Counted from the first letter of the stretch, positions 3,334 to 48,472 are shown. The stretch is 64,000 nucleotides of DNA from Porticoccaceae bacterium (GCA_018069525.1 JAGPUQ010000024.1:13748-77747), one strand, 5' to 3'. Numbers and translations are program-made. The notes: generated by a model not told the origin, from the sequence alone.

Positions 3334-4596
3334 ATGAAAGTATTGGCATTTGAGCAACTCAGTTACCGGCATTTACCCGACGACTTTACCCAAAAATACA
3401 ACTCGGTGGTTGATACTCCCTACCACGAACTGGTGGATAGGGATTTGATGCATCAGGACCACGTCGATTTTCTCGACGAGATGCTCTACGCCGCGCGCAT
3501 GGGCTTCGATGGCATCGCTACTACCGAACACAGCCAGGCTTCTTACGATGTGCTGCCCAACCCCAACCTGCAAATGTCGGCACTCGCTTACGCAACAGAG
3601 CAGGAAAAACTGGATGTGGCATTAGCCGTGCTCGGCCGCTCTCTGGGTAAGTCTCGTGAACCGATACGCATTGCCGAAGAGTATGCAGCTATTGACCAAA
3701 TTAGTGGTGGTCGTCTGGTGGCCGGCTTTCCGGTTGCCTTGAGCTACGACGCTTCACAAAATGCTGGGCATCCCCCTATCGAAACCCGGGAGCGCTACGA
3801 GGACAATCGTCGTCTGATCGAGCGAGCCTGGGCTGCCAAAGAGCCCTTTGCCTGGAATAGCAAATACAACCGTTACCCCAATGTGAATCCCTGGCCGCGG
3901 CCCTATCAGGAAAAGCCTCCTATCTGGTCGCCGTCCATTGGTACGCCGAGCAGTCTGGCCCGAATCCTCAATGATGATGACGTATTCCTCTATCTGAGCT
4001 GGTTCGGCCCCAAGTACACCGGCCCACGTATTTTTGATCGCTACTGGGATCTGGCTACTGAAATGGGTAAAGAAGCAAATCCTTATCGTCTGGCCTTTGT
4101 ACAGGGCGTTGTGGTGGGCGAAACCGACGAAATCGCCCACAAAGAATATGGGCCGCATGTCGAGCGGGGCTATCAACAGGGTCTGGGTTCGGTGCCTTTG
4201 TCCGGGCTTGGGTTGCCGGGTTACGTGGATATTAATGGCGTCGAAGCTATGGTGAAAGATCCAGGCGATTTCGGCATTGTTCCTAAAATGAAAACTATTA
4301 AATACTCGGAATTGGTTGATGCTCAGTGCGTCATCGCGGGCAGCCCCGCCACAGTTACCGAGCAGCTGGTAGAAATGATACGCCGCTTCCGCATTGGTAA
4401 TTTAATCTTGATGGTGCAGATGGGCTCTATGCCCAAAGAGCTGGTGAAGAAAAATATTACGTTGCTTTCCGAACAGGTACTGCCGACCTTGCGCAAAGAA
4501 TGGCAGGACGATAACTGGGAACATCGTTGGTGGCCCACGGGTGCGAATAAGTCCGCAAACAAATCCGCAAATAAAAAGCCTAGGGCGGGAGAATAA
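3334..4596 (+). CDS. LLM-class (luciferase-like) flavin-dependent monooxygenase/oxidoreductase
   Basis: 420 aa. The pattern GFDGIATTEHS...ISGGRLVAGFPV is typical of the luciferase-like monooxygenase fold. The C-terminus carries a repeat-derived tail (ANKSANKSANKK). Confidence 0.75.
   Translation: MKVLAFEQLSYRHLPDDFTQKYNSVVDTPYHELVDRDLMHQDHVDFLDEMLYAARMGFDGIATTEHSQASYDVLPNPNLQMSALAYATEQEKLDVALAVLGRSLGKSREPIRIAEEYAAIDQISGGRLVAGFPVALSYDASQNAGHPPIETRERYEDNRRLIERAWAAKEPFAWNSKYNRYPNVNPWPRPYQEKPPIWSPSIGTPSSLARILNDDDVFLYLSWFGPKYTGPRIFDRYWDLATEMGKEANPYRLAFVQGVVVGETDEIAHKEYGPHVERGYQQGLGSVPLSGLGLPGYVDINGVEAMVKDPGDFGIVPKMKTIKYSELVDAQCVIAGSPATVTEQLVEMIRRFRIGNLILMVQMGSMPKELVKKNITLLSEQVLPTLRKEWQDDNWEHRWWPTGANKSANKSANKKPRAGE
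4543..4578 (+). repeat. 12-bp x3 tandem repeat inside the 3' end of the LLM gene
   Basis: gcgaataagtcc / gcaaacaaatcc / gcaaataaaaag, read directly. It encodes ANKS ANKS ANKK. Confidence 0.8.
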
Positions 4597-13847: not shown

Positions 13848-14954
13848 TTAGCTGGCAATTGCGGTGGGTATGGTTCGTCCTAATAACGGTTCGCCGGGTA
13901 ATTTTTGCAATTCTGGCATCACTTCTTTGGCGAATAAACGCATGCTTTGTTCGGCTTCGCTATGGGACATACCGCCATAGCTGAACACGCCGTTAAAGGC
14001 GCACGCGCCGGTGCGACCGAGGAAGTCGTGAAGGGTATTGAGACATTTTTCCGGGGTGCCCCACACCTGTAGGCTCATAAAGAACTTGATTGCACCTTCG
14101 ATATCGGCGGCAACGTGGTCTTGCATGCTGGCGTAGGCCTCGTAACCTTTGGTTTTTTTAAGATGTTCACCGGCCATTTCGTAATGATCGATAACGGAAC
14201 GATAATAATTACCAATGTACTTTTCCGCCATTTCTTCGGCTTTATCGGCACTTTCGTGGCAGTAGGTCCAGCCGGCGAGAATCGGGGCGGGGGCATCAAC
14301 ACCGTTCACCTCGAGGTAGATGTTCCGGTAGGCGGTCATTTCACGTTCAACGTGTTCCCAGGGTTTTTGCGGAATCACTAATAAACCGATGCCGAGTTTG
14401 GCCATGATGGGTGAGGACTCGGGAGACACCGCGGCAGCGTAGGTGCGACCCTTAAAGGTGTTGAAAGGGCGCGGACGCAGTTCGCGGCGCACTTGTTTCA
14501 CCTGCTTGCCATCGTATTCACAGAAGCCGCTTTCGAGACCTTCGAGAATCATTTCCGCCGACTCGGTAAAGGTTTCCCGAGAGGTATTCATATCGCGACC
14601 AAAGCCTTCAAACTCTACTCGGCCCAGGCCTCGACCGATACCGAGAATCACCCGGCCATTGGACATATTGTCGAGCATGACGATTTCTTCGGCGACGCGA
14701 ATGGGGTCGTGCCAGGGTAGTACCATCACCATAGTACCGAGGCCGATGTCGGGATTACGTCCGGCCCAGTAGGACAGAAACTGGGTGACATCAGGACACA
14801 TGGTGTAGTCGGTGAAATGGTGCTCCACGCCCCAAATCGACTGGAAGCCCAGCTCAATACCGAGATCGCCGAGCTTGAGATCTTCGTGGTACACCTGTTG
14901 ATCAGTCGTGTTGGGGTTGAGGCCTTGAAAGATTAAAGAAAGTCCGACGTCCAC
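13848..14954 (-). CDS. LLM-class (luciferase-like) flavin-dependent monooxygenase
   Basis: 368 aa. GFQSIWGVEHHFTDY...SNGRVILGIGRGLGRVEFEGFG resembles the LuxA/alkanal-monooxygenase pattern. Confidence 0.8.
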   Translation of the reverse strand: MDVGLSLIFQGLNPNTTDQQVYHEDLKLGDLGIELGFQSIWGVEHHFTDYTMCPDVTQFLSYWAGRNPDIGLGTMVMVLPWHDPIRVAEEIVMLDNMSNGRVILGIGRGLGRVEFEGFGRDMNTSRETFTESAEMILEGLESGFCEYDGKQVKQVRRELRPRPFNTFKGRTYAAAVSPESSPIMAKLGIGLLVIPQKPWEHVEREMTAYRNIYLEVNGVDAPAPILAGWTYCHESADKAEEMAEKYIGNYYRSVIDHYEMAGEHLKKTKGYEAYASMQDHVAADIEGAIKFFMSLQVWGTPEKCLNTLHDFLGRTGACAFNGVFSYGGMSHSEAEQSMRLFAKEVMPELQKLPGEPLLGRTIPTAIAS

Positions 14955-15041: not shown

Positions 15042-15809
15042 CTAAATGGCCAGGGAAAACCCGCCATCGACGACAATCAAAGCACCGGTGACAAAGTCGG
15101 ACGATTTGCTTGCCAGAAAGATGGAAAGCCCTTCGAGATCTGCAGGTAATCCAGCACGCTTGGCGGGTGTTTTTTCGATCATGTAGGTGAGAACCGGCGC
15201 AGGTTCGGGAACCGAGCAAGGGTTCATGTCCGTGTCGAACAAACCACAGACGATGACGTTAACCTGAATGTTATCTTTGCCCCAGCCCTCAGCCAGGCTT
15301 TGACTCATATGATCCATGCCACCTTTTGCGGCGGCGTAGTGTGCCAACTTGCCGAAGCCTTTTTTGGTAATAAATGAGCTGATGTTGATGATTTTTCCGC
15401 CACCGGCTTTGACCATTTCGGGATAACAGGCTTTGGAGCACAGGAATACAGAGGTTAAATCGACGGCCATGAATTTGTCCCATAATTCCAGCGACATTTC
15501 CTCGGTTTTTACGCCCCAGCTAATACCGGCATTGTTGACCAGGGTATCCACACGCCCGAAATGCTCGACAGTTTCTTTCACCATGCGGTTGACGTCGTCT
15601 TCTATAGAGACGTCGGCCTGTACGGTTAATACCTGCGCGCCGATGGCCTTCAGTTCTGCGCTGGCAGAGTCGAGTTTGTCCTGGTTGCGGCCGACAATAG
15701 CCACTGCAGAACCGGCTTTGGCCAGGCCCTTGGCGATGCCCAAACCGAGGCCACCGTTGCCGCCGGTAATAATGGCCACTTTCCCGTTTAAATCAAATGC
15801 ATTCAACAT
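15042..15809 (-). CDS. SDR-family oxidoreductase (FabG/gluconate-5-dehydrogenase-like), array member 1
   Basis: TGGNGGLGLG cofactor motif, NNAGI, and the catalytic S...YAAAK. This is the most divergent of the four tandem copies. Confidence 0.85.
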   Translation of the reverse strand: MLNAFDLNGKVAIITGGNGGLGLGIAKGLAKAGSAVAIVGRNQDKLDSASAELKAIGAQVLTVQADVSIEDDVNRMVKETVEHFGRVDTLVNNAGISWGVKTEEMSLELWDKFMAVDLTSVFLCSKACYPEMVKAGGGKIINISSFITKKGFGKLAHYAAAKGGMDHMSQSLAEGWGKDNIQVNVIVCGLFDTDMNPCSVPEPAPVLTYMIEKTPAKRAGLPADLEGLSIFLASKSSDFVTGALIVVDGGFSLAI

Positions 15810-15946
15810 GGGCCTACCTGTGTAATCGAAGGGGAGGTCCGCCCCGATTTCTTAATTTCTGATTCAACCAATAAAAAAGAGCATCTATAAGTGTTCGTTA
15901 AACTGGGGGAGGTTCACTCCAGCCCCCTAAAAATTATCTCATCAGA

Positions 15947-16726
15947 TTACATTGCCAAACTTACGCCACCATCGGCCACGATAATAGCACCGGTAATAAA
16001 GTCCGACGCCGGGCTAGCCAGTAACTGGGTCAAGCCTTCGAAATCAGCGGGGACACCAAAGCGCTTACAGGCCGATTTGTCGATGGCATGGTCGACAAAA
16101 CTTCCCATTTTATTGGGGCCGGTGCAGGGCATCATTTCGGTATCTACTAAACCGGGGCAAATCACGTTGACCTGTATGTTCTCTTTACCCCAGCCGCGAG
16201 CCAGGCTTTGGCTCATATGATCCATGCCGCCTTTGGCCGCGGCATAGTGGGTGAGTTTGCCGAAACCGATTTGGGTAATGATCGAACTAATATTAATAAT
16301 TTTGCCGCCACCAACTTTGACCATCTCCGGGTACACTGCCTTACAACAAAGGAAGCACGAGGTTAGATTGATTTTGATAAAGGTATTCCAGGTCTCAAGT
16401 GGCAACTCTTCCGTGGGAACCCCCCAGCTAATTGCCGCGTTGTTAACCAGGATGTCGATGCGACCAAAGCGCGCAACGGTTTCGGCCACCATACGATTCA
16501 CGTCATCCTCGGAAGACACATCGGCTTGAATCGGTAAGACCTCGTAACCCTCGGATTTCAGCTCGGCCTCTGCTTTATCGAGTTTTTCCTGTTTACGGCC
16601 CACAATCGCGACCTTGGCACCGACTCTCGCCAGGCCTTTCGCGATACCCAGACCCAAACCGCCGTTGCCGCCGGTGATAATGGCAACTTTCCCGGTTAAA
16701 TCAAAAATATTACCTTGGTTTACCAT
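15947..16726 (-). CDS. SDR-family oxidoreductase, array member 2
   Basis: Same motifs, with NNAAI. I count about 28 differences in about 253 aligned residues against member 4. Confidence 0.85.
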   Translation of the reverse strand: MVNQGNIFDLTGKVAIITGGNGGLGLGIAKGLARVGAKVAIVGRKQEKLDKAEAELKSEGYEVLPIQADVSSEDDVNRMVAETVARFGRIDILVNNAAISWGVPTEELPLETWNTFIKINLTSCFLCCKAVYPEMVKVGGGKIINISSIITQIGFGKLTHYAAAKGGMDHMSQSLARGWGKENIQVNVICPGLVDTEMMPCTGPNKMGSFVDHAIDKSACKRFGVPADFEGLTQLLASPASDFITGAIIVADGGVSLAM

Positions 16727-16790
16727 AATGTCTACCTTTTGAAGAGCTGGTTTTAAGTCTGTGTATCTCGAGTGGGCATTGTTCGATGCT

Positions 16791-16838
16791 TACTACTTTC
16801 TGGAGCTACTACTTTCGAGAGCCACTACTTTCGAGAGT
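16791..16838. repeat. 16-bp x3 tandem repeat in the spacer between SDR copies 2 and 3
   Basis: tactactttctggagc / tactactttcgagagc / cactactttcgagagt. Confidence 0.8.
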
Positions 16839-16848
16839 TAACTAACAG

Positions 16849-16880
16849 TCGCCACTACCACCGGGTGGAGGTAGTGGCGA
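16849..16880. terminator. 11-bp perfect stem-loop inside the SDR array
   Basis: tcgccactacc-N10-ggtagtggcga. The T-run (tgcttttta) follows on the plus strand only, which is antisense to the SDR genes. Confidence 0.35.
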
Positions 16881-16950
16881 TGCTTTTTATCTATTGCGTC
16901 TTGCGTATCACCCTACATCAATGACGGGTAAAACTTTTAGACCCTTACGT

Positions 16951-17721
16951 TTAGACCGTCAGAGTCATACCGCCATCAGCGACGATAACGGCCCCGGTAA
17001 TAAAGTCCGACGCCGGGCTGGCCAATAACACGGCCAAACCTTCAAAGTCGGCGGGCATGCCATGGCGCTTAACGGGGGTTTTGTTGACGATGTAGTCGAT
17101 GATGGCGCCACGGTGATCAGGGCCTTCACAGGGCATCATTTCAGTGTGAACCAGACCGGGACATACCACGTTGACCTGGATATTATCTTTACCCCAGCCT
17201 TGCGCTAAACTTTGGGTCATATGATCCATGCCGCCTTTAGCCGCCGCATAATGTACCAGTTTACCAAAGCCTTTTTGGGTGATTGCCGAACTGATATTAA
17301 TGATCTTGCCGCCACCGGCTTTGATCATTTCCGGATAAACTGCTTTGGAACACAAGAAGCACGAGGTGAGGTTAATATCGATAAATTGATTCCAGGTTTC
17401 CAGCGGCATGGTTTCTGTGGCCACGCCCCAGCTAATCGCCGCATTGTTGACCAGGATGTCCACGCGACCAAAATGGTCTACAGTTTCTTTCACCATCCGG
17501 TTAACGTCGTCCTCCAGGGAAACATCTGCTTGCACCGATAAGACTTCAAAGCCCTCGGCTTTGAGCTCGGCCTCGGCTTTATCGAGTTTTTCTTGTTTGC
17601 GACCGACAATGGCGACCTTGGCACCGGCCTTCGCCAGGCCGCGGGCGATACCCAACCCTAAGCCACCGTTGCCGCCGGTGATAATGGCGACTTTTCCTGT
17701 AATATCAAACATATCCAACAT
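16951..17721 (-). CDS. SDR-family oxidoreductase, array member 3
   Basis: Same motifs as the other members, 256 aa. Confidence 0.85.
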   Translation of the reverse strand: MLDMFDITGKVAIITGGNGGLGLGIARGLAKAGAKVAIVGRKQEKLDKAEAELKAEGFEVLSVQADVSLEDDVNRMVKETVDHFGRVDILVNNAAISWGVATETMPLETWNQFIDINLTSCFLCSKAVYPEMIKAGGGKIINISSAITQKGFGKLVHYAAAKGGMDHMTQSLAQGWGKDNIQVNVVCPGLVHTEMMPCEGPDHRGAIIDYIVNKTPVKRHGMPADFEGLAVLLASPASDFITGAVIVADGGMTLTV

Positions 17722-17761
17722 AGTACTTACCTTGTTTATTTAGCTAATTTATATAGAAAGA

Positions 17762-18529
17762 TTACATTGCCAGGCTAAGACCGCCGTCGGCCACGATAAT
17801 GGACCCGGTAATAAAATTGGAAGCTGGGCTGGCCAGCAATTGGGTCAAGCCTTCGAAGTCGGCGGGGACACCAAAGCGATTACAGGCAGATTTTTTAATC
17901 GCGTAATCGACGATGCCGCCGATTTTGTCAGGGCCGGTACAAGGCATCATCTCCGTGTCGACCAAACCCGGCAGAATCACGTTGACTTGGATGTTTTCCT
18001 TACCCCAGCCGCGAGCCAGGCTTTGACTCATATGATCCATGCCGCCTTTGGCCGCGGCATAATGCACGAGCTTGCCGAAACCGAGTTTGGTGATAATCGA
18101 ACTCACATTAATAATTTTGCCGCCACCGACTTTGACCATTTCGGGGTACACCGCCTTACAGCAGAGGAAACAGGAGGTCAGGTTGATGCTGATAAACTTA
18201 TTCCAGGTTTCCAGCGACATTTCTGCGGTGGGTACGCCCCAACTAATGGCTGCGTTGTTGACCAGAATGTCGACGCGACCAAAGCGCTCGACGGTTTCGG
18301 CCACCATACGATTCACGTCATCCTCGGAAGACACATCGGCTTGAATCGGTAAGACCTCATAACCTTCAGCTTTCAGCTCGGCTTCGGCTTTATCGAGTTT
18401 TTCTTGTTTGCGTCCGACGATGGCGACTTTAGCGCCGATTTTAGCTAGACCTCTGGCCATGCCGAGGCCCAAACCGCCATTACCGCCGGTGATAATGGCC
18501 ACTTTTCCCGTTAAATCAAACGTATTCAA
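17762..18529 (-). CDS. SDR-family oxidoreductase, array member 4
   Basis: Same motifs, 255 aa. It is the first gene of the array in transcription order. Confidence 0.85.
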   Translation of the reverse strand: MNTFDLTGKVAIITGGNGGLGLGMARGLAKIGAKVAIVGRKQEKLDKAEAELKAEGYEVLPIQADVSSEDDVNRMVAETVERFGRVDILVNNAAISWGVPTAEMSLETWNKFISINLTSCFLCCKAVYPEMVKVGGGKIINVSSIITKLGFGKLVHYAAAKGGMDHMSQSLARGWGKENIQVNVILPGLVDTEMMPCTGPDKIGGIVDYAIKKSACNRFGVPADFEGLTQLLASPASNFITGSIIVADGGLSLAM

Positions 18530-18796: not shown

Positions 18797-19882
18797 CTAG
18801 CGCGCCGCCGCAATCCCCAGGCCCACTGGCACCCCGTCTTCGATTTGATCCAGATATTCAGACAGGCCGTAGCCGGTTTTGCCCTTGCAGCGATATTCGG
18901 TCATGGCTTCGGTGATACGGGTATTTAACTGCGTTCCATCCTCTGCCTTGCGGCGATTTCGTAGAGGAATCAAGGAGATAACCTTCCCGGTAAACTCAAA
19001 TTCTTCGCCGCGTTCGGTTTTGCACCAGGCTGTCATACCGGTTTGGTAATGATTCTCATCCCACTGGGAATCGACTCGGGCATCCACAATTAAATCATAG
19101 CGACCTTCGGTAAAGACCATGCCGCCGCAATCAAAGCTGCCATCGCGCATGCCCATGGTCATGATCATCGCCCCTAAATTCGGGCCCAGTGAAATCGGCA
19201 GCCAGCGATACCAGTAGATATTCTGCCAGTAGCGCGGGCCCCAACTGTGGTCGCGCAGACCGTAACCGTCAATCTGCCATTTTTCCTTGCCGACACGAAT
19301 AGAGCCGCTGGCCGAGACATGCTGCTCGAAGTGGGCTCGGGCCATGGCAATCGTGGTATCCAGCTGGAGAGGAGAGCCATCGGCGTTTAAATGTTCGCCG
19401 CCGTACATAGGCGACAGGCCACGGTAGTCGAGGTCGATATTACAATCTTCGAGACTATTATTCTTAAAGGCTTTACCGGGATCGATCATCTCGTGGGGAT
19501 TATCCAGCACCAGGATTTTCCCGCTGTAGCTCACCTTTTGTTGTTTAAAAGGTTCGATAATTTTAAATTCGGCACCACCGGCCCTGAGCACTTCGTTCGT
19601 GTCGATCTCGGAGCGATGAAAGATAAACCCGACTCGGCCACCGGGCAGATAAAGGCAGATAGACACTTCTGCGTAACCCTCGTTTACCCGGTTGCCGATG
19701 CGTAGCCAGCCGCCGACCTGTTGCTTACCGTCGTAAATATTGTAGTAGGCGCTCTCGTTGAAATTGGCTACCGGCTCTGGGGCGTGGTTGTATTCATCCT
19801 CGGGATCGAGTCGCACATTGTTACCGGGCTTGGTGATAAATACGTGTTTTGAGGGTAGGTATTTTGGGGATAGGTTTGTCAT
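18797..19882 (-). CDS. conserved hypothetical protein (RDHSWGPRYW-motif family), paralogue 1
   Basis: I trimmed the start to ATG 19882 (MTNLSPKY...), which has GAGGAAG 6 nt upstream. It shares NFNES.Y...GGW.R.GNR.NEG.AE.S.C.YLP.GRV and G.G.RDHSWGPRYW with 20085..21089. Confidence 0.6.
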   Translation of the reverse strand: MTNLSPKYLPSKHVFITKPGNNVRLDPEDEYNHAPEPVANFNESAYYNIYDGKQQVGGWLRIGNRVNEGYAEVSICLYLPGGRVGFIFHRSEIDTNEVLRAGGAEFKIIEPFKQQKVSYSGKILVLDNPHEMIDPGKAFKNNSLEDCNIDLDYRGLSPMYGGEHLNADGSPLQLDTTIAMARAHFEQHVSASGSIRVGKEKWQIDGYGLRDHSWGPRYWQNIYWYRWLPISLGPNLGAMIMTMGMRDGSFDCGGMVFTEGRYDLIVDARVDSQWDENHYQTGMTAWCKTERGEEFEFTGKVISLIPLRNRRKAEDGTQLNTRITEAMTEYRCKGKTGYGLSEYLDQIEDGVPVGLGIAAAR

Positions 19883-20084: not shown

Positions 20085-21089
20085 ATGACAGCAATTAGGC
20101 TCGATCCAATCGACGAATACGGCCACGCGCCGAGTGAAGATAGTAACTTTAACGAGAGCGTGTATTCCAGCGGCTGGGATCCAAGGGCCAGGCTGGGCGG
20201 CTGGATGCGTCTGGGTAATCGGATCAACGAAGGTCACGCTGAATTATCGGTGTGCATGTATTTGCCCGATGGCCGAGTAGCCTGTCAATTCTTACGCCCC
20301 GAAATTGATACTAATGACAAGCACTCCGCCGGGGGGCTTGATTATCAGGTGGTCGAGCCTTTTAAGGCCGTCAACATGCACTATCACGGTGAATTGATGG
20401 TGCTCGACGATCCCCAACTGCTGCGCAATCCCGGTAAACTCTTTAAAACCGCACCTCGGGTTGATGGCGAGGTGATTTTTAATCACACCGGAGTGTCCCC
20501 CATGCACGGCGGCGAGCCGATGGAGCCGGAGCTGGAGACCATGTACGGGCGGGATTTTTCCCTCGGCCACTTTAATCAACATATACGAACCACCGGCAGT
20601 TTGCGGGTCGGCGATGAGTCCTGGAATATCGATGGCTTTGGTTGGCGCGACCACTCCTGGGGTCCGCGCTACTGGACTAATATTAATTTCTACCGTTTGT
20701 TTGTCGCCAACTTTGGCGCGGATCGCGGCTTTATGGTGTTGAAACGCACCGATCGACAAAACCGCGTGCATCGCAAGGGCGTACTGTTATTCGATGGTGA
20801 TTACGAAGAAGTGATTGATATCGATGTGATGACGGAGTGGACGGAATCGAAAGACCCAGCCGCTGTGACCATTGGTGTGCGTACCGAAAAACGTGCAGTG
20901 CGGATTGAAGGAAAAATTATCACCATGGCTCCGTTAAGCAATCGCCGCCAGGTCGGTGATGAAACCTTGAGCTGCCGTATTGCCGAGGGTTTTACCCAGT
21001 GGCGTTGGGACGATGGTCGGGAAGGTCTGGGCATTACCGAGTACATCGAATTTTTGGAAGACGGTGAACCGGTGGGTTATCCACTTTGA
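20085..21089 (+). CDS. conserved hypothetical protein (RDHSWGPRYW-motif family), paralogue 2
   Basis: 334 aa, divergently transcribed from paralogue 1. It is the first gene of the plus-strand operon 20085-26679. Confidence 0.6.
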   Translation: MTAIRLDPIDEYGHAPSEDSNFNESVYSSGWDPRARLGGWMRLGNRINEGHAELSVCMYLPDGRVACQFLRPEIDTNDKHSAGGLDYQVVEPFKAVNMHYHGELMVLDDPQLLRNPGKLFKTAPRVDGEVIFNHTGVSPMHGGEPMEPELETMYGRDFSLGHFNQHIRTTGSLRVGDESWNIDGFGWRDHSWGPRYWTNINFYRLFVANFGADRGFMVLKRTDRQNRVHRKGVLLFDGDYEEVIDIDVMTEWTESKDPAAVTIGVRTEKRAVRIEGKIITMAPLSNRRQVGDETLSCRIAEGFTQWRWDDGREGLGITEYIEFLEDGEPVGYPL

Positions 21090-21126: not shown

Positions 21127-22149
21127 ATGTCAGTAGTCGAGTCTCCCGTTACCGATTCTTTAGAGGGCATTATCGTTAGGCTTGAGGCTGCGGTACGCCG
21201 TCGGTTTGGCGGCGATGCCAGTATTGTCAACGTGGACGTCGCAACGTTGGGGGCGTCTAACCGAACTTTATTATTTGATTTGCTCGACGGTAATACCACA
21301 AGGCGGCTGGTACTGCGCCAGGAAACCTATCGCTCGCCGGTGTCGCCATTTCTGTCACCCCACGATCAATATCGCATTCACCAGGTAGTGCATAGCCACG
21401 GGCTGGCTATTCCCGAACCGATCTTCGAATTAGACGAAACCGACGATCTGGATCGGGGCTTTGTAGTGGCTTGCATTGACGGTGAAACCCTGCCCAAAAC
21501 TTTATTGGGCGATCCCGCATTCGCCTCGGCGCGATCTTGCTTTGCCACCCAGAGTGGCGAATTTTTTGCCCGCCTGCACGCTATCCCGGTCGCTGAGCTG
21601 CCCTTTCTGGCAGACTCCGCGGATAGTATCGATCCCCTGAATGCGCAGCGGCAGCGCTACGATAGCTACCAGGAATCCCACCCCGGCATCGAGGTGGGAT
21701 TGCGTTGGCTAGAAAATAATCGCCCTCAGGAGCGCGCGCCGAAATTGATTCACGGCGACTATCGCGTGGGCAATTTGTTGCTCAATCATCAGGGCATTAC
21801 CGGCGTACTGGATTGGGAATGTGCTCACCAGGGTAATGCCATGGAGGACATAGGCTGGTTATGTTTACGATCCTGGCGTTTTGGTCGTATCGATAAACCC
21901 GTCGGCGGTATGGGGCCGCGTAGCGAACTCTATGCCGCTTACTCAGCCAACGGCGGCGAGACGGTAGATCCGGAAGAGGTTAGGTGGTGGGAAATTTTTG
22001 CCTCGCTGAAATGGGCGATATTAAATATCATGCAGGCCGATGGTCACGTGCGCGGGGAGCGACGCTCGCTACCCTTTGCCTGCTGCGGACGTAACGCCGC
22101 TATGATTGAGTACGATATGTTGATGACCATTAGTGGGCGTTTCCAGTGA
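21127..22149 (+). CDS. APH-fold phosphotransferase (LvaA / ACAD10-11 kinase-domain-like)
   Basis: Brenner motif LIHGDYRVGNLL followed by VLDWECAHQGNAMEDIG. 340 aa. Confidence 0.75.
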   Translation: MSVVESPVTDSLEGIIVRLEAAVRRRFGGDASIVNVDVATLGASNRTLLFDLLDGNTTRRLVLRQETYRSPVSPFLSPHDQYRIHQVVHSHGLAIPEPIFELDETDDLDRGFVVACIDGETLPKTLLGDPAFASARSCFATQSGEFFARLHAIPVAELPFLADSADSIDPLNAQRQRYDSYQESHPGIEVGLRWLENNRPQERAPKLIHGDYRVGNLLLNHQGITGVLDWECAHQGNAMEDIGWLCLRSWRFGRIDKPVGGMGPRSELYAAYSANGGETVDPEEVRWWEIFASLKWAILNIMQADGHVRGERRSLPFACCGRNAAMIEYDMLMTISGRFQ

Positions 22150-22159
22150 GTATTTGTTT

Positions 22160-22561
22160 ATGAGCCACGATCGCCCGGACATCCCGGAAATATTGGCTAC
22201 ACTGAAGGAGTTTACCCGTGGAGTCGCCGATAAAGCTCGGGGCAGCGAACGCTACGACGCTTTGTGCGCCGGGTTTTTAGTCGATGTGGTTAAGCGCGAG
22301 TTGGTCTGTGTCGAAGCTCAGGATAAAAGTCAGGCACAGCGCCTGACGGCGATCACTGGGCAGTCGGGCGAACTCGAACAGCTCTATGAGGCCTTCTGTC
22401 AAAACGTGCGCGGCGGTCGTCTCGACCAACAATGGGACGAGGTCTTTGATTTTGCCCTGCAACAGGTGATTGATAAAGTTGCGGTGACTAAGCCCGATTA
22501 TTTGGCGCCAGAGCATCAAGCTGATGCGCTGACTGGGAATGTAAAAAAACAGCTTGAATAA
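22160..22561 (+). CDS. small partner protein of the APH-type kinase (LvaB-like position)
   Basis: 133 aa from ATG 22160, 11 nt after the kinase stop. No motif is recognisable. The assignment rests on size and position only. Confidence 0.4.
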   Translation: MSHDRPDIPEILATLKEFTRGVADKARGSERYDALCAGFLVDVVKRELVCVEAQDKSQAQRLTAITGQSGELEQLYEAFCQNVRGGRLDQQWDEVFDFALQQVIDKVAVTKPDYLAPEHQADALTGNVKKQLE

Positions 22562-22617
22562 AAACGGGACTAATTTTTTAAACTAAAATTCTTTTTAATT
22601 AAAAATAGGAGCAGGTA

Positions 22618-23382
22618 ATGGTTGGAAGAGTAGAAGGTAAGGTGGCGGTAGTCACCGGTGCTGGCGGCGGTATTGGTCGCGCAGCCAGTGAAATATTTGG
22701 GCGGGAGGGTGCTAGTGTCGTCATTGCCGATATTAACGTGACAAGCGGCGAAGAAACCGCGCATTTAGTAGAGAAAGCGGGAGGCAAAGCGATTTTTCTA
22801 AAATGCGATGTTTCCAAAGCCGAAGATGCCGAAGCCTTAACCAGGGCCGCAGTGGTTAATTTTGGCGGCCTGCACTGCGCTTTTAATAATGCGGGGGTGG
22901 AGGGCGAATACGCCAGAATAGCCGACGCCACCGAAGAAAATTTTATGCTCAACTATCAGGTCAATATGCTCGGCGTATTTTTGTGCATGAAATATCAAAT
23001 TCGACAAATGCTCACCCAAAGCGAAGGCGGAGCGATTGTAAATACCGCATCCGATGCGGGCTTAGTTGGTGTTAAAAATCTCGGTCAATATTCGGCTTCC
23101 AAGCACGCGGTGATCGGTCTAACTAAATCTGCAGCACTGGATTACGCGACTAAACATATCCGCGTCAATGCGGTGTGCCCGGGTCCGATCCGCACGCCGA
23201 TGCTGGAGCGGATTTTCGAAGAAAATCCCAGAATTGGTGAAGCCATGATCGCAGCGCAGCCCATTAAGCGCCTGGGTGAACCCCATGAAATCGGCGACGC
23301 AGCGGTGTATTTGTGCTCCGATGCCGCATCGTACATAACCGGTCACGCGATGCCGGTGGACGGCGGTTATATGGCTACCTAA
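22618..23382 (+). CDS. SDR-family oxidoreductase (classical; glucose-1-dehydrogenase-like)
   Basis: TGAGGGIGRA, NNAGV, YSASKHA. An AGGAG RBS lies 6 nt upstream. Confidence 0.85.
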   Translation: MVGRVEGKVAVVTGAGGGIGRAASEIFGREGASVVIADINVTSGEETAHLVEKAGGKAIFLKCDVSKAEDAEALTRAAVVNFGGLHCAFNNAGVEGEYARIADATEENFMLNYQVNMLGVFLCMKYQIRQMLTQSEGGAIVNTASDAGLVGVKNLGQYSASKHAVIGLTKSAALDYATKHIRVNAVCPGPIRTPMLERIFEENPRIGEAMIAAQPIKRLGEPHEIGDAAVYLCSDAASYITGHAMPVDGGYMAT

Positions 23383-23430
23383 ATAGCTACCTGGATAGTT
23401 AGGTAATCAGCCACGTAACTAGCCAAAAAA
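23371..23430 (+). repeat. 12-bp x5 degenerate tandem repeat starting with the last 3 codons + stop of the SDR gene
   Basis: atggctacctaa / atagctacctgg / atagttaggtaa / tcagccacgtaa / ctagccaaaaaa. Confidence 0.75.
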
Positions 23431-23473
23431 ATTAAGATATAAATTTTAAGTTTTCATTTAAAGGAGTTAAACA

Positions 23474-24577
23474 ATGCGCATTCAAGCCGCAGTATTGCGG
23501 GAGTTAGGCCAGGCCTTCGAAATCGAAGAGCTGGAGCTGGCCCCGCCAAAAGCAAACGAGGTACTGGTACGTACGGTTGCCAGTGGTATTTGCCACAGTG
23601 ATTATTCCGTTGTCCACGGGGTGTTGCGTTCACCTTTGCCGGTGGTGTTGGGCCACGAAGGTGCGGGTATTATTGAGGAAGTCGGCCCCGGTGTGACGCA
23701 CCTTAAACCCGGTGACAAAGTGATTGCTTCGCTGACGCCCAGCTGTGGCCAGTGCACTATGTGTAAAGAGTTGAAACCGTTTATGTGTTCGCAAATGGGT
23801 AAGTTGCTTACTGACTGCACTCAGCTGGATGGTACGACTCGCCACAAAACCCTGGGTGGTGAAGATGTTTACGCCTTGTGTGGCGTTGGTTCCTTCGGTT
23901 CTCATATGGTGATGCCCGCCGGTAGTGCCATTAAAGTCCCTGAGGATACTCCGCTCGAAACCACTTGCCTGATTGGCTGTGGCGTCACCACCGGTACTGG
24001 TGCCGCGCTCAATACCGCGAATGTACAACCCGGAGAAGCGACTGCGGTGATTGGTTGTGGCGGCGTGGGCCTGTCGATTATTCAGGGTTGCCGCATTGGT
24101 GGTGCGACTATCATTATTGCCATTGACCCGATGGAAGAAAAGCGCGATCTGGCGATGGATATGGGCGCTACGCACACCATTAACCCCTTTGAAGAAGACC
24201 CCATTGCCCGGGTGAAAGAAATTACCGGTGGTATCGGTGTTCACTACGCCTTTGAAGCGCTAGGGAGGGTGGAAACCATGGAGCAGACCTGGGGCATGAT
24301 CCGTCCTACCGGCACGGCAGTGATTGTCGGTGTCGCGTCATTAGATCAATCGGTAAAAATTCCGGCAGCGGGTTTGTTGGCGGAGTACGAAATCCAGGGT
24401 TCCTGCTACGGTTCGTCGACCCCGAAAAAAGATATCCCCCGATTTGTTGAGCTGTATAAATCCGGTGAATTAAAGCTGGACGAAATGATTACTCAGCGCA
24501 TCGAATTAAAAGAGATTAACCGTGCCTTTGACGAAATGGGTCGCGGTGAAGGTGCGCGTTCGGTCATTATGTATTAA
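23474..24577 (+). CDS. Zn-dependent alcohol dehydrogenase (MDR family)
   Basis: GICHSD, GHEGAG, the structural-Zn cysteine cluster (CGQCTMCK..C) and GCGGVGLS. Confidence 0.85.
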   Translation: MRIQAAVLRELGQAFEIEELELAPPKANEVLVRTVASGICHSDYSVVHGVLRSPLPVVLGHEGAGIIEEVGPGVTHLKPGDKVIASLTPSCGQCTMCKELKPFMCSQMGKLLTDCTQLDGTTRHKTLGGEDVYALCGVGSFGSHMVMPAGSAIKVPEDTPLETTCLIGCGVTTGTGAALNTANVQPGEATAVIGCGGVGLSIIQGCRIGGATIIIAIDPMEEKRDLAMDMGATHTINPFEEDPIARVKEITGGIGVHYAFEALGRVETMEQTWGMIRPTGTAVIVGVASLDQSVKIPAAGLLAEYEIQGSCYGSSTPKKDIPRFVELYKSGELKLDEMITQRIELKEINRAFDEMGRGEGARSVIMY

Positions 24578-24672
24578 TAAAAATGTCTGGCCGAATACAA
24601 AAAAATATTCCCGATTAAATAGTTATCAATTTAATGATTGTTGTCGGTGAAAAAACCGATCAGGAGAAAAAC

Positions 24673-25776
24673 ATGAAAACTAAAGCCGCAGTGCTTTATG
24701 AAATAGGCGGACCGCTCGTTATTGAAGAATTGGAGTTGTCGCCACCACAGGCAGGGGAAGTGCTGATTAAGTATGCTGCCAGCGGTATTTGCCACAGCGA
24801 TGTGTCGTTCCGGGACGGCGTACTGGAAACCGCGCTGCCCGCTGTGCTCGGTCACGAAGGTTCCGGCGTGATTGAAGCGGTAGGAGATGGCGTTACTAAT
24901 GTTAAGGTCGGCGATCACGTGATTGTTTCGCTGACACCGCAGTGTGGCGAATGTTTATTTTGCAAAGAAGGTAAGCCCTTCTTGTGTGCGCAAATGGGCG
25001 AGGTTATCTGGAAGGCGTCTTTACTCGATGGCTCCAAGCGGCTTAAAAATGCGAAAGGCGATGAAATTGGCCAGCTAGTGTGTGTGGGCACTTTCGCCGA
25101 GCGTGCGGTGATTCCCGCAGGCATGGCCTCAAAAATTAATCCTGATGCGCCACTGGAAACGGTTTGTTTGATTGGTTGTGGGGTAACCACCGGCGTGGGC
25201 GCGGCCCTCAATACCGTGAAAATGGAAGTCGGTGATAGCTGTGCGGTGATTGGTTGCGGCGGCGTCGGTTTGTCTGTTATTCAGGGCGCCCGCATTGCCG
25301 GTGCAGGTACGATTATTGCGATTGATCCGGTGCCACAAAAGCGCGAGCTAGCCTTATCCCTGGGCGCCACTCACGCCATCGATCCAATGGTTGGTAATGT
25401 CGTTAAGGAAGTGAAAAAAATTCAACGAGGTGGGGTTCATTACGCCTTTGAAGCCCTGGGTCGCAAAGACACCATCGAGCAGGCCTGGTCTATGGCTCGC
25501 GCTACGGGTACCGCAGTCATTGTCGGCGTGCCATCTCCCGATACGGTGTTGGAATTACCCGTGTTAGGGTTCTTTGGTGAGAAGCATTTCAAGGGTTCTG
25601 CCTACGGGACCACTCTGCCATCCCGCGATATTCCCAAATTTGTTGATCTGTATATGAAAGGCGATTTGCGGCTTGACGATATGATCACCAGCCACATTAC
25701 GCTCGAGGATATCAATGATGCTATGGCTGAAATGACTCGTGGAGAAGGTGTGCGTACGGTGATTAAATACGATTAA
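24673..25776 (+). CDS. Zn-dependent alcohol dehydrogenase (MDR family), paralogue
   Basis: Same motifs (GICHSD, GHEGSG, CGECLFCK, GCGGVGLS). I moved the start to ATG 24673, which is preceded by AGGAGA. Confidence 0.85.
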   Translation: MKTKAAVLYEIGGPLVIEELELSPPQAGEVLIKYAASGICHSDVSFRDGVLETALPAVLGHEGSGVIEAVGDGVTNVKVGDHVIVSLTPQCGECLFCKEGKPFLCAQMGEVIWKASLLDGSKRLKNAKGDEIGQLVCVGTFAERAVIPAGMASKINPDAPLETVCLIGCGVTTGVGAALNTVKMEVGDSCAVIGCGGVGLSVIQGARIAGAGTIIAIDPVPQKRELALSLGATHAIDPMVGNVVKEVKKIQRGGVHYAFEALGRKDTIEQAWSMARATGTAVIVGVPSPDTVLELPVLGFFGEKHFKGSAYGTTLPSRDIPKFVDLYMKGDLRLDDMITSHITLEDINDAMAEMTRGEGVRTVIKYD

Positions 25777-25827
25777 TTATTACGTCAGTGTTTATTGAAA
25801 CAAACAGATAACCAAGGAGATATAACA

Positions 25828-26679
25828 ATGCAAGAATTAACAACAAGCCCCTTTGTCGACGACTTTGTGTTTCTTGAAAGCCCACGCTGGCACGATGGCA
25901 AGCTTTGGGTATCCGATATGTTCGGCTGTGCGGTTTACACCATTGCCGCCGATGGCAGCAGAACAGAAGTTGCCAAATTCCCCGAGCGACCTTCGGGCAT
26001 TAACTTTATGCCGGACGGCTCCGTGGTGATCGTGTCTATGGCCGATCGTAAGCTAATGAAAGTAGAAAACGGTCAGTTGAGTGAATATGCAGATCTTTCC
26101 GCTATGCTGGCCTACGACATTAATGACTGCGTCTGCGACGCTAAGGGTAATATTTATGTTGGCACCTTTGGTTACGATGTGTTCGCCCATCAGGAACCAC
26201 AGCCAGCAACGCTGACCGTGGTAAAACCCGATGGCAGTATTACTACGGTGGCTGACGATATACATTTCCCCAACGGTTGTGTGATTGCCAACAATGGTAA
26301 AACCCTGGTGGTTGCTGAAACGTTTGTCTGTAGGCTAACGGCCTTTGATATTGAGTCCGACGGTTCATTATCCAATCGACGAGTATTTGCCGATATGGGC
26401 GAGCGTACTCCCGATGGTATTTGTCTCGATGCGGATGGAGCCATCTGGGTGGCCTGTTTTGAGCAGGGCGAATTTGTTCGTGTGCTCGACGGCGGTGAAA
26501 TCACTCATCGTGTTGACGTGGGTGATCGTCGTGCGGTTGCCTGTAACCTGGGTGGCGATGATGGCAAGACACTGTATTGCCTGATTTACGATGGTAGCCT
26601 GGAAGACATCCCTCTGGGTAAGCGCAATGCCTTGATTGAAACCGCCCGGGTGGATGTTGCCGGTGCGGGTTCACCCTAA
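25828..26679 (+). CDS. SMP-30/gluconolactonase/LRE-family lactonase
   Basis: ESPRWHDGKLWVSD...PDG...FPNG...PDGICLDADGAIWVA matches the beta-propeller lactonase pattern. I moved the start to ATG 25828, which is preceded by GGAG. Confidence 0.75.
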   Translation: MQELTTSPFVDDFVFLESPRWHDGKLWVSDMFGCAVYTIAADGSRTEVAKFPERPSGINFMPDGSVVIVSMADRKLMKVENGQLSEYADLSAMLAYDINDCVCDAKGNIYVGTFGYDVFAHQEPQPATLTVVKPDGSITTVADDIHFPNGCVIANNGKTLVVAETFVCRLTAFDIESDGSLSNRRVFADMGERTPDGICLDADGAIWVACFEQGEFVRVLDGGEITHRVDVGDRRAVACNLGGDDGKTLYCLIYDGSLEDIPLGKRNALIETARVDVAGAGSP

Positions 26680-45982: not shown

Positions 45983-47146
45983 ATGGATTTTGCGTTGTTA
46001 GACGAACAGAAAATGATTTACCAGTACGGACAAAATATCGCTAAGGACTTTGACCGCAAATACTGGATGGATTGTGCCGACGCCTCTAGATTCCCCGAGG
46101 AGATGTATCAGCGGGTCGCCGACGACGGTTTTGTTGGCTTGATGGTGCCCGAGGCTTATGGCGGATCAGGTTTAGGGATGTTTGAAATGGGCTTGTTTAA
46201 CGAGGGTTTGTCGGAGCAGGGCACACCACTGCTGAGCCTGGTGATCGGTGCCACTATGTGTCTGGGTGCCATTAGTAAGCACGGTACAGAAGAGCAAAAA
46301 CAGCAGTATTTGCCGCCTTCCTGCCGGGGCGAAACACGTTTTTGCTTTGGTATTACCGAAGCCGATGCGGGTACCAATACCATTCGCATTAACACCATTG
46401 CCGCACCCCAGCCGAATGGTCGCTTCAAACTCAATGGTAGCAAAACCTATATTACCGATGCTAAAGAGTCGGACTATATGCTGCTGGTAACGCGCACGAC
46501 TCCGCACACGGAGGTAAAACGCAAAACCGAAGGCTTTACTTTGTTTATCGTCGATACCAAGGCAAAAGGTATCGAAATGCAGCCTATCGACATAAGTGTG
46601 CCAATTCCCGAAATGCAATATCAGATCTTTTTTGACGATGTGGACCTGGGACCCGAGCAGGTATTGGGTGAAGTTGATAAGGGTTTTGAGGTCTTATTCG
46701 ACTCCTTAAACCCCGAGCGTATTCTGGTGGGTTCTATCTGTGTGGGCCTGGGTCGCTACGCATTGGCAAGAGCTGTCGAGTACGCCAGCGAACGCTCGGT
46801 GTTTAAAGGGCCCATAGGAGCTTATCAGGCACTGCAACATCCTTTGGCCCGGGCTAAAACTGAAATTGAAGCGGCGTCGTTATTAACCCATAAAGCGGCG
46901 AGCTTGTTTGACCAGGGCGAGCCCTGTGGCGATGAGGCCAATATGGCGAAATTCGCCGCCTCGGAAGCCTGTGTGAACGCCGTGGATGCCGCGCTCCAGT
47001 GTTTTGGTGGCAATGGGTATACCAAGGAATATGGCATTTTTGACTTATACCCCGTCGCGCGTTTAATGAAGACAATACCGTTCAATAATGAAATGGTGTT
47101 GAATTATATCGGTGAGCGAGTGCTGGGTTTACCGCGATCTTACTAG
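45983..47146 (+). CDS. acyl-CoA dehydrogenase, array member 1
   Basis: 387 aa. ITE.DAGTN, ...KTYITDA..., and a C-terminal ..NEMVLNYIGE (catalytic Glu context). Confidence 0.85.
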   Translation: MDFALLDEQKMIYQYGQNIAKDFDRKYWMDCADASRFPEEMYQRVADDGFVGLMVPEAYGGSGLGMFEMGLFNEGLSEQGTPLLSLVIGATMCLGAISKHGTEEQKQQYLPPSCRGETRFCFGITEADAGTNTIRINTIAAPQPNGRFKLNGSKTYITDAKESDYMLLVTRTTPHTEVKRKTEGFTLFIVDTKAKGIEMQPIDISVPIPEMQYQIFFDDVDLGPEQVLGEVDKGFEVLFDSLNPERILVGSICVGLGRYALARAVEYASERSVFKGPIGAYQALQHPLARAKTEIEAASLLTHKAASLFDQGEPCGDEANMAKFAASEACVNAVDAALQCFGGNGYTKEYGIFDLYPVARLMKTIPFNNEMVLNYIGERVLGLPRSY

Positions 47147-47162
47147 CCACCGGCGCTACTAG
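47131..47162 (+). repeat. 16-bp x2 repeat spanning the ACAD-1 stop
   Basis: accgcgatcttactag / ccaccggcgctactag. Confidence 0.55.
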
Positions 47163-47213
47163 TTTTGCATTCGATTTGCTGGCTATAAACGCGAATTAAT
47201 TTGGAGGAAGAGT

Positions 47214-48377
47214 ATGGACTTTTTACTTTCTGACGAACAAAAAATGATTTACGACTATGGCGAGAGTCTGGCGAAAACCTATGACCGCGCCTACTGGATG
47301 GAACACGCCGAGCGTCGTGCTTTTCCGGTCGATATGTACAAGCAGATAGCCGCCGACGGATTTGTTGGAACCATGGTGCCGGAGCAGTACGGTGGTTCTG
47401 GTCTCGGTATGGTAGAGATGGCGCTGTTTAAAGAAGGGCTCTCCAATCAGGGTGTTCCGCTGTTGAGTTTGGTGGTGGGCGCCTGTATGTCGATGTCGGT
47501 TATTGGTAAATATGGCAGCGAAGAACAGAAACAAAACTATTTGCCCGCCGCCTGTAGCGGCGATATTCGCTTTTGTTTTGCCATTACCGAGCCGGACGCA
47601 GGAACCAATACCATTAAAGCGTCGACCATCGCAAAGCCCACCGCTGACGGTCGTTTTAAATTGACCGGACGTAAAACTTATATCACCGATGCTCTGGAAT
47701 CCGATTACGCTTTAGTGGTAACGCGCACCAAGCCACATACCGAAGTTGCGCGAAAAACCGATGGTTTTACGTTGTTTATTGTCGATACCAAATCGAAAGG
47801 TATTGAGATGCATCCGATCCCGGTAAGTATTCCCTTGCCGGAACTACAGTACCAGGTGTTTTTCGACGATGTGGATCTCGGCCCGGAAAACGTACTCGGT
47901 GAAGTCGATAAAGGTTTCGATATTCTGTTTGATTGCCTGAACCCAGAACGTATTTTGGTGGGTTCGATCAGCTGTGGTATCGGCCGCTTCGCAATGGATA
48001 AAGCCGTGGCCTATGCCAGCGAGCGCACCGTGTTTAAGGGCCCCATCGGGGCCTATCAGGCCTTGCAGCATCCACTGGCCAAAGCTAAAACTGAAATTGA
48101 GCTGGCCTCATTAATGACCCGCAAAGCCGCCTGGATGTACGATCAGAAAATGGAGTGTGGCGGTGAAGCCAGTATGGCGAAATATGCTGCTGCTGAAGCC
48201 TCTATCCACGCGGTGGATGCGTCGTTGCAATGTTTTGGGGGTAACGGTTACACCAAAGAGTATGGCATTTTTGATCTTTATCCGCTGGCGCGTTTGTTTA
48301 AAACTGCGCCGCTGAATAGCGAAATGGTATTGAATTACATCGGCGAGAAAGTACTGGGTTTACCGCGCTCCTATTAG
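47214..48377 (+). CDS. acyl-CoA dehydrogenase, array member 2
   Basis: 387 aa, collinear with member 1 without gaps. Roughly 70% identical by eye. Confidence 0.85.
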   Translation: MDFLLSDEQKMIYDYGESLAKTYDRAYWMEHAERRAFPVDMYKQIAADGFVGTMVPEQYGGSGLGMVEMALFKEGLSNQGVPLLSLVVGACMSMSVIGKYGSEEQKQNYLPAACSGDIRFCFAITEPDAGTNTIKASTIAKPTADGRFKLTGRKTYITDALESDYALVVTRTKPHTEVARKTDGFTLFIVDTKSKGIEMHPIPVSIPLPELQYQVFFDDVDLGPENVLGEVDKGFDILFDCLNPERILVGSISCGIGRFAMDKAVAYASERTVFKGPIGAYQALQHPLAKAKTEIELASLMTRKAAWMYDQKMECGGEASMAKYAAAEASIHAVDASLQCFGGNGYTKEYGIFDLYPLARLFKTAPLNSEMVLNYIGEKVLGLPRSY

Positions 48378-48437
48378 CCGGGCACTTATTAGCCGAGAAC
48401 TTATTAGCTGGGCACTGATTAAGCGCACAGTTATTAA
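48363..48437 (+). repeat. 15-bp x5 in-frame tandem repeat: the last 4 codons + stop of ACAD-2 reiterated
   Basis: ccgcgctcctatTAG / ccgggcacttatTAG / ccgagaacttatTAG / ctgggcactgatTAA / gcgcacagttatTAA. Confidence 0.9.
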
Positions 48438-48472
48438 ATTTTTGTAAAAAATATTATTACTGGAAAAAGCAC

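Follow-up and report, generated by a model that had tools for sequence, protein, structure and literature searches.

The operon described here lies on the plus strand of a 64,000-nt stretch of DNA from a Porticoccaceae bacterium (GCA_018069525.1, JAGPUQ010000024.1:13748-77747; hereafter the window), which is part of contig 17 of a 2.73-Mb genome in 27 contigs. Its core is a conserved three-gene unit encoding a DUF7065/DUF7064 protein (below, the DUF7064 protein), an LvaA-type kinase of the APH fold, and an LvaB-type DUF6285 protein. The reading that we prefer, and to which we would give an even chance, is that this unit is a kinase and phospho-lyase module for ATP-dependent dehydration. What we observed directly are the family memberships, the fold, the gene linkage and the co-occurrence. 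Activation with ATP followed by elimination of phosphate is a rare way of dehydrating an unactivated alcohol. Documented cases are LvaABC and ACAD10/11, which act on levulinate and 4-hydroxy acids, and 25-HSK/25-PSL, which serve the anaerobic degradation of sterol side chains. Judged from sequence comparison and a structural model, the new element of the locus is best described as the joining of an LvaAB-type kinase to a protein resembling 25-phosphosteroid lyase (25-PSL).

The kinase (21127..22149, 340 aa) matches PF01636 (E 2.5e-29) and has intact motifs, with an HGDYRVGN catalytic loop (HGDxxxxN) and a metal-binding DWE. The next open reading frame (ORF; 22160..22561, 133 aa) begins 10 nt after the kinase stop codon. 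A first-pass annotation of the window had recognized this adjacency, although it gave the spacing as 11 nt, and it had described the 133-aa protein as having no motif; the protein matches Pfam DUF6285 (PF19802, E 1.3e-14). The same annotation started the operon at the kinase and overlooked a gene 37 nt upstream (20085..21089), so that the operon begins one gene earlier. This first gene encodes the 334-aa DUF7064 protein (Pfam PF23213 and PF23212), a candidate phospho-lyase.

The linkage of DUF7064 to kinases extends well beyond the window. DUF7064, APH and DUF6285 genes are contiguous in four gene contexts, with gaps of 13-40 nt or with the called genes overlapping. In the Porticoccaceae, they occur with genes for a short-chain dehydrogenase/reductase (SDR), two alcohol dehydrogenases (ADHs) and an SMP-30/gluconolactonase/LRE-like (SGL) lactonase, as in the window. 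Four other gammaproteobacterial assemblies have the unit with an enoyl-CoA hydratase (ECH), an acyl-CoA dehydrogenase (ACAD), an SDR and a divergent luciferase-like gene. In the third context (L177), the neighbors are genes for an ABC transporter, whose permease is fused to SGL, and for a member of the enolase superfamily, and in the fourth (L197), the unit lies behind ACAD-ADH-ADH-SGL. A luciferase-like gene accompanies the core unit in most contexts (it is beside DUF7064-APH-DUF6285 in L005, L176, L194, L195 and L196), and the DUF7064 gene always adjoins kinases of the clade to which the window kinase belongs. Within this genome, four of the five DUF7064 genes are within 4 kb of one of the six APH genes, for which the expectation by chance is ~1.8% each. 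Other Porticoccaceae genomes carry many more copies (20 DUF7064 matches in G694, 19 in G727, 14 in G693), and ~14 of the 20 in G694, which are grouped in islands (loci L178-L189), adjoin APH kinases of ~400 aa. Matches to DUF7064 that exceed the Pfam cut-off are present in 51 of 201 genomes of the Porticoccaceae but in only 2 of 401 genomes sampled across the Pseudomonadota.

The DUF7064 family has 3129 relatives, many at 60-76% identity, and no assigned function. An AlphaFold model of the window protein (37 sequences; pLDDT 94.5, pTM 0.91) has an AttH-like double beta-barrel. When this model was compared with the PDB using Foldseek, the top five chains were all 25-PSL (9G4C, 9G2I and 9FZN; E 1.7e-13 to 3.6e-12, TM 0.62-0.65), and the next group, which reached no better than E 5e-10, comprised fungal pericyclases, AttH and kievitone hydratase. 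A profile of the DUF7064 family also had 25-PSL as its sole, weak match in the PDB (E 0.026), through three collinear motifs common to both, H..NF.(E/D)..Y.N, RD(H/R)SWG(P/V)R and G.G..E(Y/F). The second of these, RDHSWGPR versus RDRSWGVR, is the most conserved block of the DUF7064 family. A DUF7064 paralogue encoded on contig 23 matches 25-PSL at E 9.6e-7 (phmmer) and the window DUF7064 proteins at E 8e-11 to 6e-17. As a homologue of 25-PSL encoded at a conserved place before the kinase gene, the DUF7064 protein is a strong candidate for the enzyme of phosphate elimination that the operon seemed to lack. A separate APH-like kinase and lyase that together carry out ATP-dependent dehydration are established for 25-OH-steroids (PMC8449060, PMC7411048; PDB 9FZN/9G2I/9G4C).

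The contig-23 paralogue is part of a second kinase/lyase-like cluster of this genome (C23:24042-30152; L172:6043-12153), which has no DUF6285 gene and encodes two tandem 403-aa APHs, a 186-aa ORF of no known family, two DUF7065/DUF7064 proteins and a Y_phosphatase3 protein. The best PDB match of its APHs is Mycobacterium tuberculosis Rv3168 (3ATS, E 2e-20). They also match 9FSG, which we take to be 25-HSK, at E 1.3e-14, closer than the window kinase does (E 8e-5). By locus number, the APH Rv3168 neighbors Rv3169, whose family model gives a weak match to the window DUF7064 proteins.

For the window kinase itself, the nearest solved structures are 3DXP (E 4.5e-10), 9O56, 3ATS and the ACAD11 kinase domain (E 1e-5). 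It is also the best match in this genome to an lvaA-position kinase (30% identity, E 1e-44; runner-up, E 4e-20). In a maximum-likelihood tree, the window kinase belongs to a seven-member clade (support 100/100), every member of which comes from a DUF7064-carrying locus, and the Pseudomonas lva-type kinases are in a different clade of 30 rows. By sequence, then, the kinase is a family member of the LvaA type and not an LvaA orthologue. The first-pass description of the two proteins as an LvaA/LvaB-like pair thus holds at the level of family, with DUF6285 in the lvaB slot, but not as orthology; similarly, its phylogenetic expectation was borne out insofar as the kinase sits on the LvaA/ACAD10 side and not with antibiotic kinases, albeit outside the Pseudomonas LvaA clade. 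An identity as an antibiotic kinase was rejected on its scores, which are far under the model cut-offs (29.9 bits versus 205 for APH(3'), and 19-20 bits versus 500-550 for Mph models).

The placement of DUF6285 in the lvaB slot comes from gene order. Our sampling covered 401 Pseudomonadota genomes (33 positive) and 301 genomes from a family in the same order whose members have large genomes (31 positive), and named Pseudomonas genomes were reached by searching with a Pseudomonadaceae lvaA-like kinase from a DUF6285 locus (among them Pseudomonas guariconensis, P. soli, P. japonica, P. putida KH-21-134, P. capeferrum and P. taiwanensis). In P. putida KH-21-134, a divergent PrpR_N/sigma-54 regulator gene is followed by genes for an APH (352 aa), a DUF6285 protein (118 aa) and an ACAD (390 aa), and then by those for an SDR (255 aa), an AMP-binding ligase (553 aa) and an SSF symporter. 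Locus L105, an lva-type operon from the P. putida group with this layout, has DUF6285 in the lvaB position. The published order is lvaR-ABCDE(FG), in which the lvaB product is a protein of 12 kDa recovered together with LvaA on purification (PMC6692424). The position of DUF6285 in lvaRABCDE-type operons is the reason why we consider "LvaA/LvaB-like" correct at family level; the equation of LvaB with DUF6285 draws on operon layout in P. putida-group genomes other than KT2440 and is to that extent indirect. A literature search on DUF6285, DUF7064/7065 and PP_2792 returned nothing relevant.

DUF6285 is present as a sole copy in this genome, and its AF2 model, with five helices, is of low confidence (pLDDT 63). 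The family is beside or fused to an APH in every sampled locus (31/31, 13/13, 79/79 and 4/4). Single-chain APH-DUF6285 fusions of ~450-490 aa occur in several Pseudomonadota lineages (loci L057, L058 and L060-L065; proteins P0269, P0278, P0280 and P0281), and these natural fusions support a role for DUF6285 as a kinase subunit.

We propose that the APH-DUF6285 pair would use ATP to convert a hydroxyl that is intractable to ordinary dehydrogenases or hydratases into a phosphoester, and that the DUF7064 protein would then eliminate the phosphate to leave a C=C bond, for a net ATP-dependent dehydration. In this scheme, the AttH-fold lyase would stand in for the acyl-CoA dehydrogenase of the LvaAB plus LvaC logic. 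The SDRs, the two ADHs, the lactonase and the luciferase-like monooxygenase could make or consume the hydroxylated intermediate along a path from alcohol to ketone, to lactone or ester, and to hydroxy acid. The substrate could be a hydroxyacyl-CoA, or a free lipid-like or terpenoid alcohol. A kinase and phospho-lyase unit of this kind is the most parsimonious reading, and would explain both why the operon has no ACAD and why the DUF7064 gene never leaves the kinase.

It is also conceivable, if improbable, that the phosphorylated product is an end in itself, as a hydroxy acid or sugar acid entering central metabolism or as the product of a detoxification or resistance kinase, and that the neighboring genes encode loosely related oxidoreductases. 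APH-fold kinases are very diverse in substrate, and the SGL lactonase together with gluconate-5-dehydrogenase-like SDRs would fit sugar-lactone metabolism; the L177 unit, with its ABC transporter and enolase-superfamily protein, would be in keeping with such a role. The antibiotic-kinase scores given above, however, speak against a resistance function, the nearest characterized relatives of the kinase all make phosphoesters for elimination (PMC12440821, PMC8449060), and the obligate DUF7064 neighbor resembles a phosphate-eliminating lyase.

A different source for the elimination step was suggested by the first-pass annotation, which correctly noted that the operon lacks an ACAD and that three tandem ACAD genes are present 24 kb downstream (45983..49636), and which looked to these for the LvaC function. 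Beyond their ACAD fold and their presence in the same window, we found little to recommend them, and we consider this explanation very improbable. The three proteins are 28-29% identical to the lvaC-position ACAD, compared with 59% for an ACAD encoded on contig 26, and rank below at least five other ACADs of the genome. Their C-termini (TKEYG...LGLPRSY) are without the catalytic-Asp motif DGP(D/S)EVH, and the nearest NCBIfam models are generic (PRK12341 or AcrC-type), with scores under the cut-offs. In addition, fnr, a hemN-like gene, usp, msrA, ccm genes and others lie between the operon and the ACAD genes, and those of their relatives that adjoin the core unit in other genomes resemble paralogues on contigs 12 and 8 more closely. 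The tandem ACADs were rejected as LvaC on the low identity and the missing catalytic-Asp motif.

More serious competition comes from ACADs elsewhere in the genome, which encodes three of the Asp type (DGP[DS][EQ]VH), on contigs 26, 8 and 18 (loci L170, L171 and L174). On contig 26, an APH gene is followed by the ACAD gene, whose product, the one with 59% identity to the lvaC-position ACAD, matches ACAD11 at E 6e-63. On contig 8, the order is His-phosphatase, ACAD, APH, medium-chain dehydrogenase/reductase, SDR, SDR. One of these SDRs is 51% identical to the lvaD-position SDR, and the contig-8 gene set resembles the P. citronellolis lva variant. The contig-18 ACAD (C18:181435-182637) has the sequence ADGPDEVH, matches the ACAD domain of ACAD11 at E 1e-136 to 1e-140, and is solitary among aroA, cmk, rpsA and a DEAD-box helicase gene, with no kinase of its own. 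The lvaC-position ACAD of Pseudomonas lva-type operons (L105 and L087) is 34% identical to the ACAD11-like contig-18 type and is thus only moderately ACAD11-like. Set against the literature, this would mean that KT2440 is unlike these relatives or that the published values are something other than plain identities.

The contig-18 enzyme could allow a classical LvaABC or ACAD10/11 route with the ACAD supplied in trans. APH-DUF6285 would phosphorylate a 4-hydroxyacyl-CoA derived from lactone-derived hydroxy acids, the contig-18 ACAD would form the 2-enoyl-CoA, and the DUF7064 protein would do other chemistry, such as hydration or isomerization of a double bond. We regard this as the less likely course, but a serious one. 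Enzymes of the ACAD10/11 type accept 4-phosphoacyl-CoA but not ordinary acyl-CoAs (PMC12440821). An orthologue with 84% identity to the contig-18 ACAD is the product of the first gene of ACAD-ADH-ADH-SGL-DUF7064-APH-DUF6285 in L197, an ACAD of this type is encoded within ~6 kb of DUF7064 genes in all five genomes of the sister genus g231, and orthologues at ≥83% identity are found in 41 of the 201 Porticoccaceae genomes, 39 of which also have DUF6285. In the genus of the present genome, by contrast, the ACAD gene and the operon are on different contigs or are separated by 72-615 kb, and no Asp-type ACAD is beside DUF7064-APH-DUF6285 in L176, L194, L195, L196 or L177. It is tempting to pair the solitary ACAD with the kinase of the operon, but solitary ACAD10/11-type ACADs are common (G892 has three, none beside its 20 APH genes), and we therefore down-weighted this argument. 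The window lacks a CoA ligase for such a route, and supply in trans leaves the linkage of DUF7064 to APH, the tightest in our data, unexplained. The two schemes are compatible, since the contig-18 ACAD and the DUF7064 protein may both be eliminating enzymes serving one pathway.

Several observations weigh against a kinase and phospho-lyase module. All characterized relatives of the kinase (LvaAB, ACAD10/11) pass their product to an Asp-type ACAD, and most of the sampled DUF6285 loci (21/31, 11/13 and 76/79) encode an lvaC-like ACAD at a distance of no more than 6 kb, although none of the four close relatives of the window operon does. The ACAD of the contig-18 type, whose gene comes first in this operon in L197 and in genus g231 and which occurs with DUF6285 in 39 of 41 genomes, points the same way. 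The identity of the DUF7064 protein to 25-PSL is only 13-14%, the AttH-like fold also houses hydratases and pericyclases or cyclases, and the likeness in RDxSWGxR, a matter of sequence, does not distinguish a catalytic from a phosphate-binding role. The kinase and lyase genes are not adjacent in Sterolibacterium (PMC8449060). Co-occurrence speaks for the module, in that all 43 of the 201 Porticoccaceae genomes with DUF6285 also have DUF7064, a further 8 have DUF7064 alone, DUF6285 never occurs alone, and both are missing from 150, but these counts follow genus boundaries and are not independent events. What the enzymes do, how kinase and lyase would be coupled, and on which substrate they would act are all inferred. 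For these reasons, namely the inferred activities, the low identity to 25-PSL in a fold shared with hydratases and cyclases, and the existence of a serious rival, we hold our confidence at an even balance.

Whether the substrate is a CoA thioester can be argued in both directions. The operon has no CoA-handling gene, and the absence of a CoA ligase from the window, noted in the first-pass annotation, stands: none of the five ORFs of ≥500 aa is an AMP-binding CoA ligase. The model enzyme 25-PSL, moreover, acts on a free phosphosteroid. On the other hand, the gene contexts taken together add ECH, ACAD and SDR genes to the unit in four assemblies, and the characterized relatives of the kinase all need CoA (PMC12440821). 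A CoA-binding role has been given to ACAD11 residues R86 and R176 from molecular-dynamics modelling (PMC12440821), which is too weak to decide the question here.

The remaining genes of the operon were correctly placed and assigned to families in the first-pass annotation, as was the kinase. The classical SDR (22618..23382, 254 aa; PF13561, PF00106) scores 322.6 bits against NF004818, under the cut-off of 336, and is 81% identical to its L192 orthologue. It had been cast as the counterpart of LvaD, which it is not, with 29% identity to the lvaD-position SDR against 51% for the contig-8 gene product. Zn-dependent ADH 1 (23474..24577, 367 aa) and ADH 2 (24634..25776, a 380-aa ORF) both have ADH_N and ADH_zinc_N domains and are class-III or NDMA-ADH-like, under NCBIfam cut-offs. 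ADH 1 matches TIGR03989 (E 4e-112, under the cut-off) and is 87% identical to its L192 orthologue, and ADH 2 is TIGR03989- or TIGR02818-like, again under the cut-offs. The SGL lactonase (25828..26679, 283 aa from ATG) matches PF08450 over residues 28-261 (E 8.3e-50). Its ORF opens at a TTG at 25795, and the ATG at 25828 is the probable start; the homologues are 283-285 aa long. We found no signal peptide on reading its N-terminus, and the enzyme is predicted to be cytoplasmic.

Upstream, a divergent arm is encoded on the minus strand. It begins with the DUF7065/DUF7064 paralogue (18797..19882, 361 aa from ATG; PF23212, E 3e-32), whose ORF runs to 19984 and which is 42% identical to the protein encoded at 20085-21089. 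Four tandem SDR paralogues of 255-259 aa follow (15042..18529; Pfam and NCBIfam matches), and the arm ends with a luciferase-like (FMN-type) monooxygenase (13848..14954, 368 aa; PF00296, E 1e-51), 75% identical to its L192 orthologue. A second luciferase-like gene is at 3334..4596 on the plus strand, so that the first-pass count of two in the window was right. The annotation took them for possible type II Baeyer-Villiger enzymes; for both, what the data give is membership of the superfamily (PF00296), the best NCBIfam matches being far under cut-off. With these enzymes, the ADHs, the SDRs and the lactonase, the outer route from alcohol through ketone and lactone to hydroxy acid that the annotation envisaged is plausible in terms of gene content.

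The divergent arm is conserved in L002, L004, L005 and L192. The whole block (luciferase-like gene, SDR array, DUF7064, APH, DUF6285, SDR, ADH, ADH and SGL) recurs on three independent metagenome contigs and in one related genome at 56-87% protein identity, and this conservation argues that the arrangement did not arise by chance. At its 3´ end, the operon is convergent with fnr. Promoter and terminator scans were uninformative on the operon boundaries, with 15 promoters versus 13.9 in shuffled sequence and 22 terminators versus 16.5.

A few neighboring genes deserve mention. The gene upstream of fnr, with which it has a one-base overlap, is a 407-aa ORF (27825-29048, minus strand) that has no Pfam match at E 1e-3 and weak partial HemN matches (59.8 bits, where the cut-off is 325). 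Its product has the look of a HemN-like protein that has degenerated or diverged. A DUF1329 (LolA-like) protein is encoded at 686-2137 on the minus strand. DUF1329 has been linked to the uptake of hydrophobic substrates, and genes of this family are also near the DUF7064 clusters in L175, L176 and L194. In one gammaproteobacterial assembly, the ECH and ACAD genes that follow DUF7064-APH-DUF6285 are separated by a gene for a 697-aa molybdopterin oxidoreductase (L196:12331-14424), an insertion that recalls the Mo-hydroxylases flanking the kinase and lyase steps of anaerobic sterol degradation.

We tentatively suggest a broader picture, about which we are more doubtful than about the module itself. 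In the aerobic marine Porticoccaceae, ATP-dependent dehydration may be a tool of catabolism in general, in which an APH kinase and an AttH-fold phospho-lyase, present as up to ~20 paralogous pairs per genome, would remove unreactive (for example, tertiary) hydroxyls from terpenoid, sterol-like or branched acyl substrates. The window operon would then be of hybrid origin, with a lyase of this sort having recruited an LvaAB-type kinase, a type whose targets are otherwise acyl-CoAs. If so, this would constitute a flavin-independent alternative to LvaC and ACAD10/11 for phosphate elimination, and would give a first function to DUF7064/DUF7065 and to gene pairs of the Rv3168-Rv3169 type. The coupling of kinase to lyase, if true, would by itself provide functions for DUF6285, DUF7064 and DUF7065, offer a hint at the role of the M. 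tuberculosis Rv3168/Rv3169 pair, and supply new biocatalysts for the conversion of alcohols to alkenes.

Among known systems, the eukaryotic ACAD10 and ACAD11 proteins, in which the kinase is fused to an ACAD (PMC12440821, PMC11342911), belong to the same broad APH subgroup as the window kinase, and this genome encodes ACADs of their type on contigs 18 and 8. The window kinase differs in being a stand-alone protein from an operon with no ACAD, and its match to ACAD11 is only at the E 1e-5 level. The double beta-barrel architecture predicted for the DUF7064 protein is common to AttH, CrtC, kievitone hydratase and the fungal pericyclases. These proteins hydrate or cyclize without a phosphorylated substrate, match at least three orders of magnitude worse than 25-PSL, and have no kinase link among the data examined.

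With LvaA/LvaB of the P. putida lva operon (Rand et al. 2017, as summarized in PMC6692424, PMC12440821 and PMC11342911), the window shares an APH-fold kinase gene followed directly by that for a DUF6285 protein of ~12-15 kDa and then by an SDR gene, and its kinase is the best match of the genome to the lvaA position. The separate clade of the kinase, at ~30% identity, sets the window operon apart, as do an SDR that is not the LvaD counterpart and the absence of an LvaC-type ACAD, an LvaE ligase and a sigma-54 LvaR regulator. The DUF7065/DUF7064 gene before the kinase was never found in the lva-type loci sampled.

The other close parallel is 25-HSK/25-PSL of Sterolibacterium denitrificans (PMC7411048, PMC8449060). 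The differences here are the 13-14% identity, a kinase of the LvaA type with a DUF6285 subunit in place of a 25-HSK orthologue, the adjacency of the window genes, compared with the separated Sterolibacterium genes, and a host that is a small-genome marine member of the Porticoccaceae with no Mo-hydroxylase. The annotated ORFs of the window include no steroid-degradation genes, although no search was targeted at them. What the two systems have in common is an APH-like kinase with a separate lyase or lyase-like protein of the AttH-like fold, 25-PSL being the best structural and sole sequence-profile match of DUF7064, with RDxSWGxR in both. By analogy, they may also share the logic of ATP-dependent dehydration.

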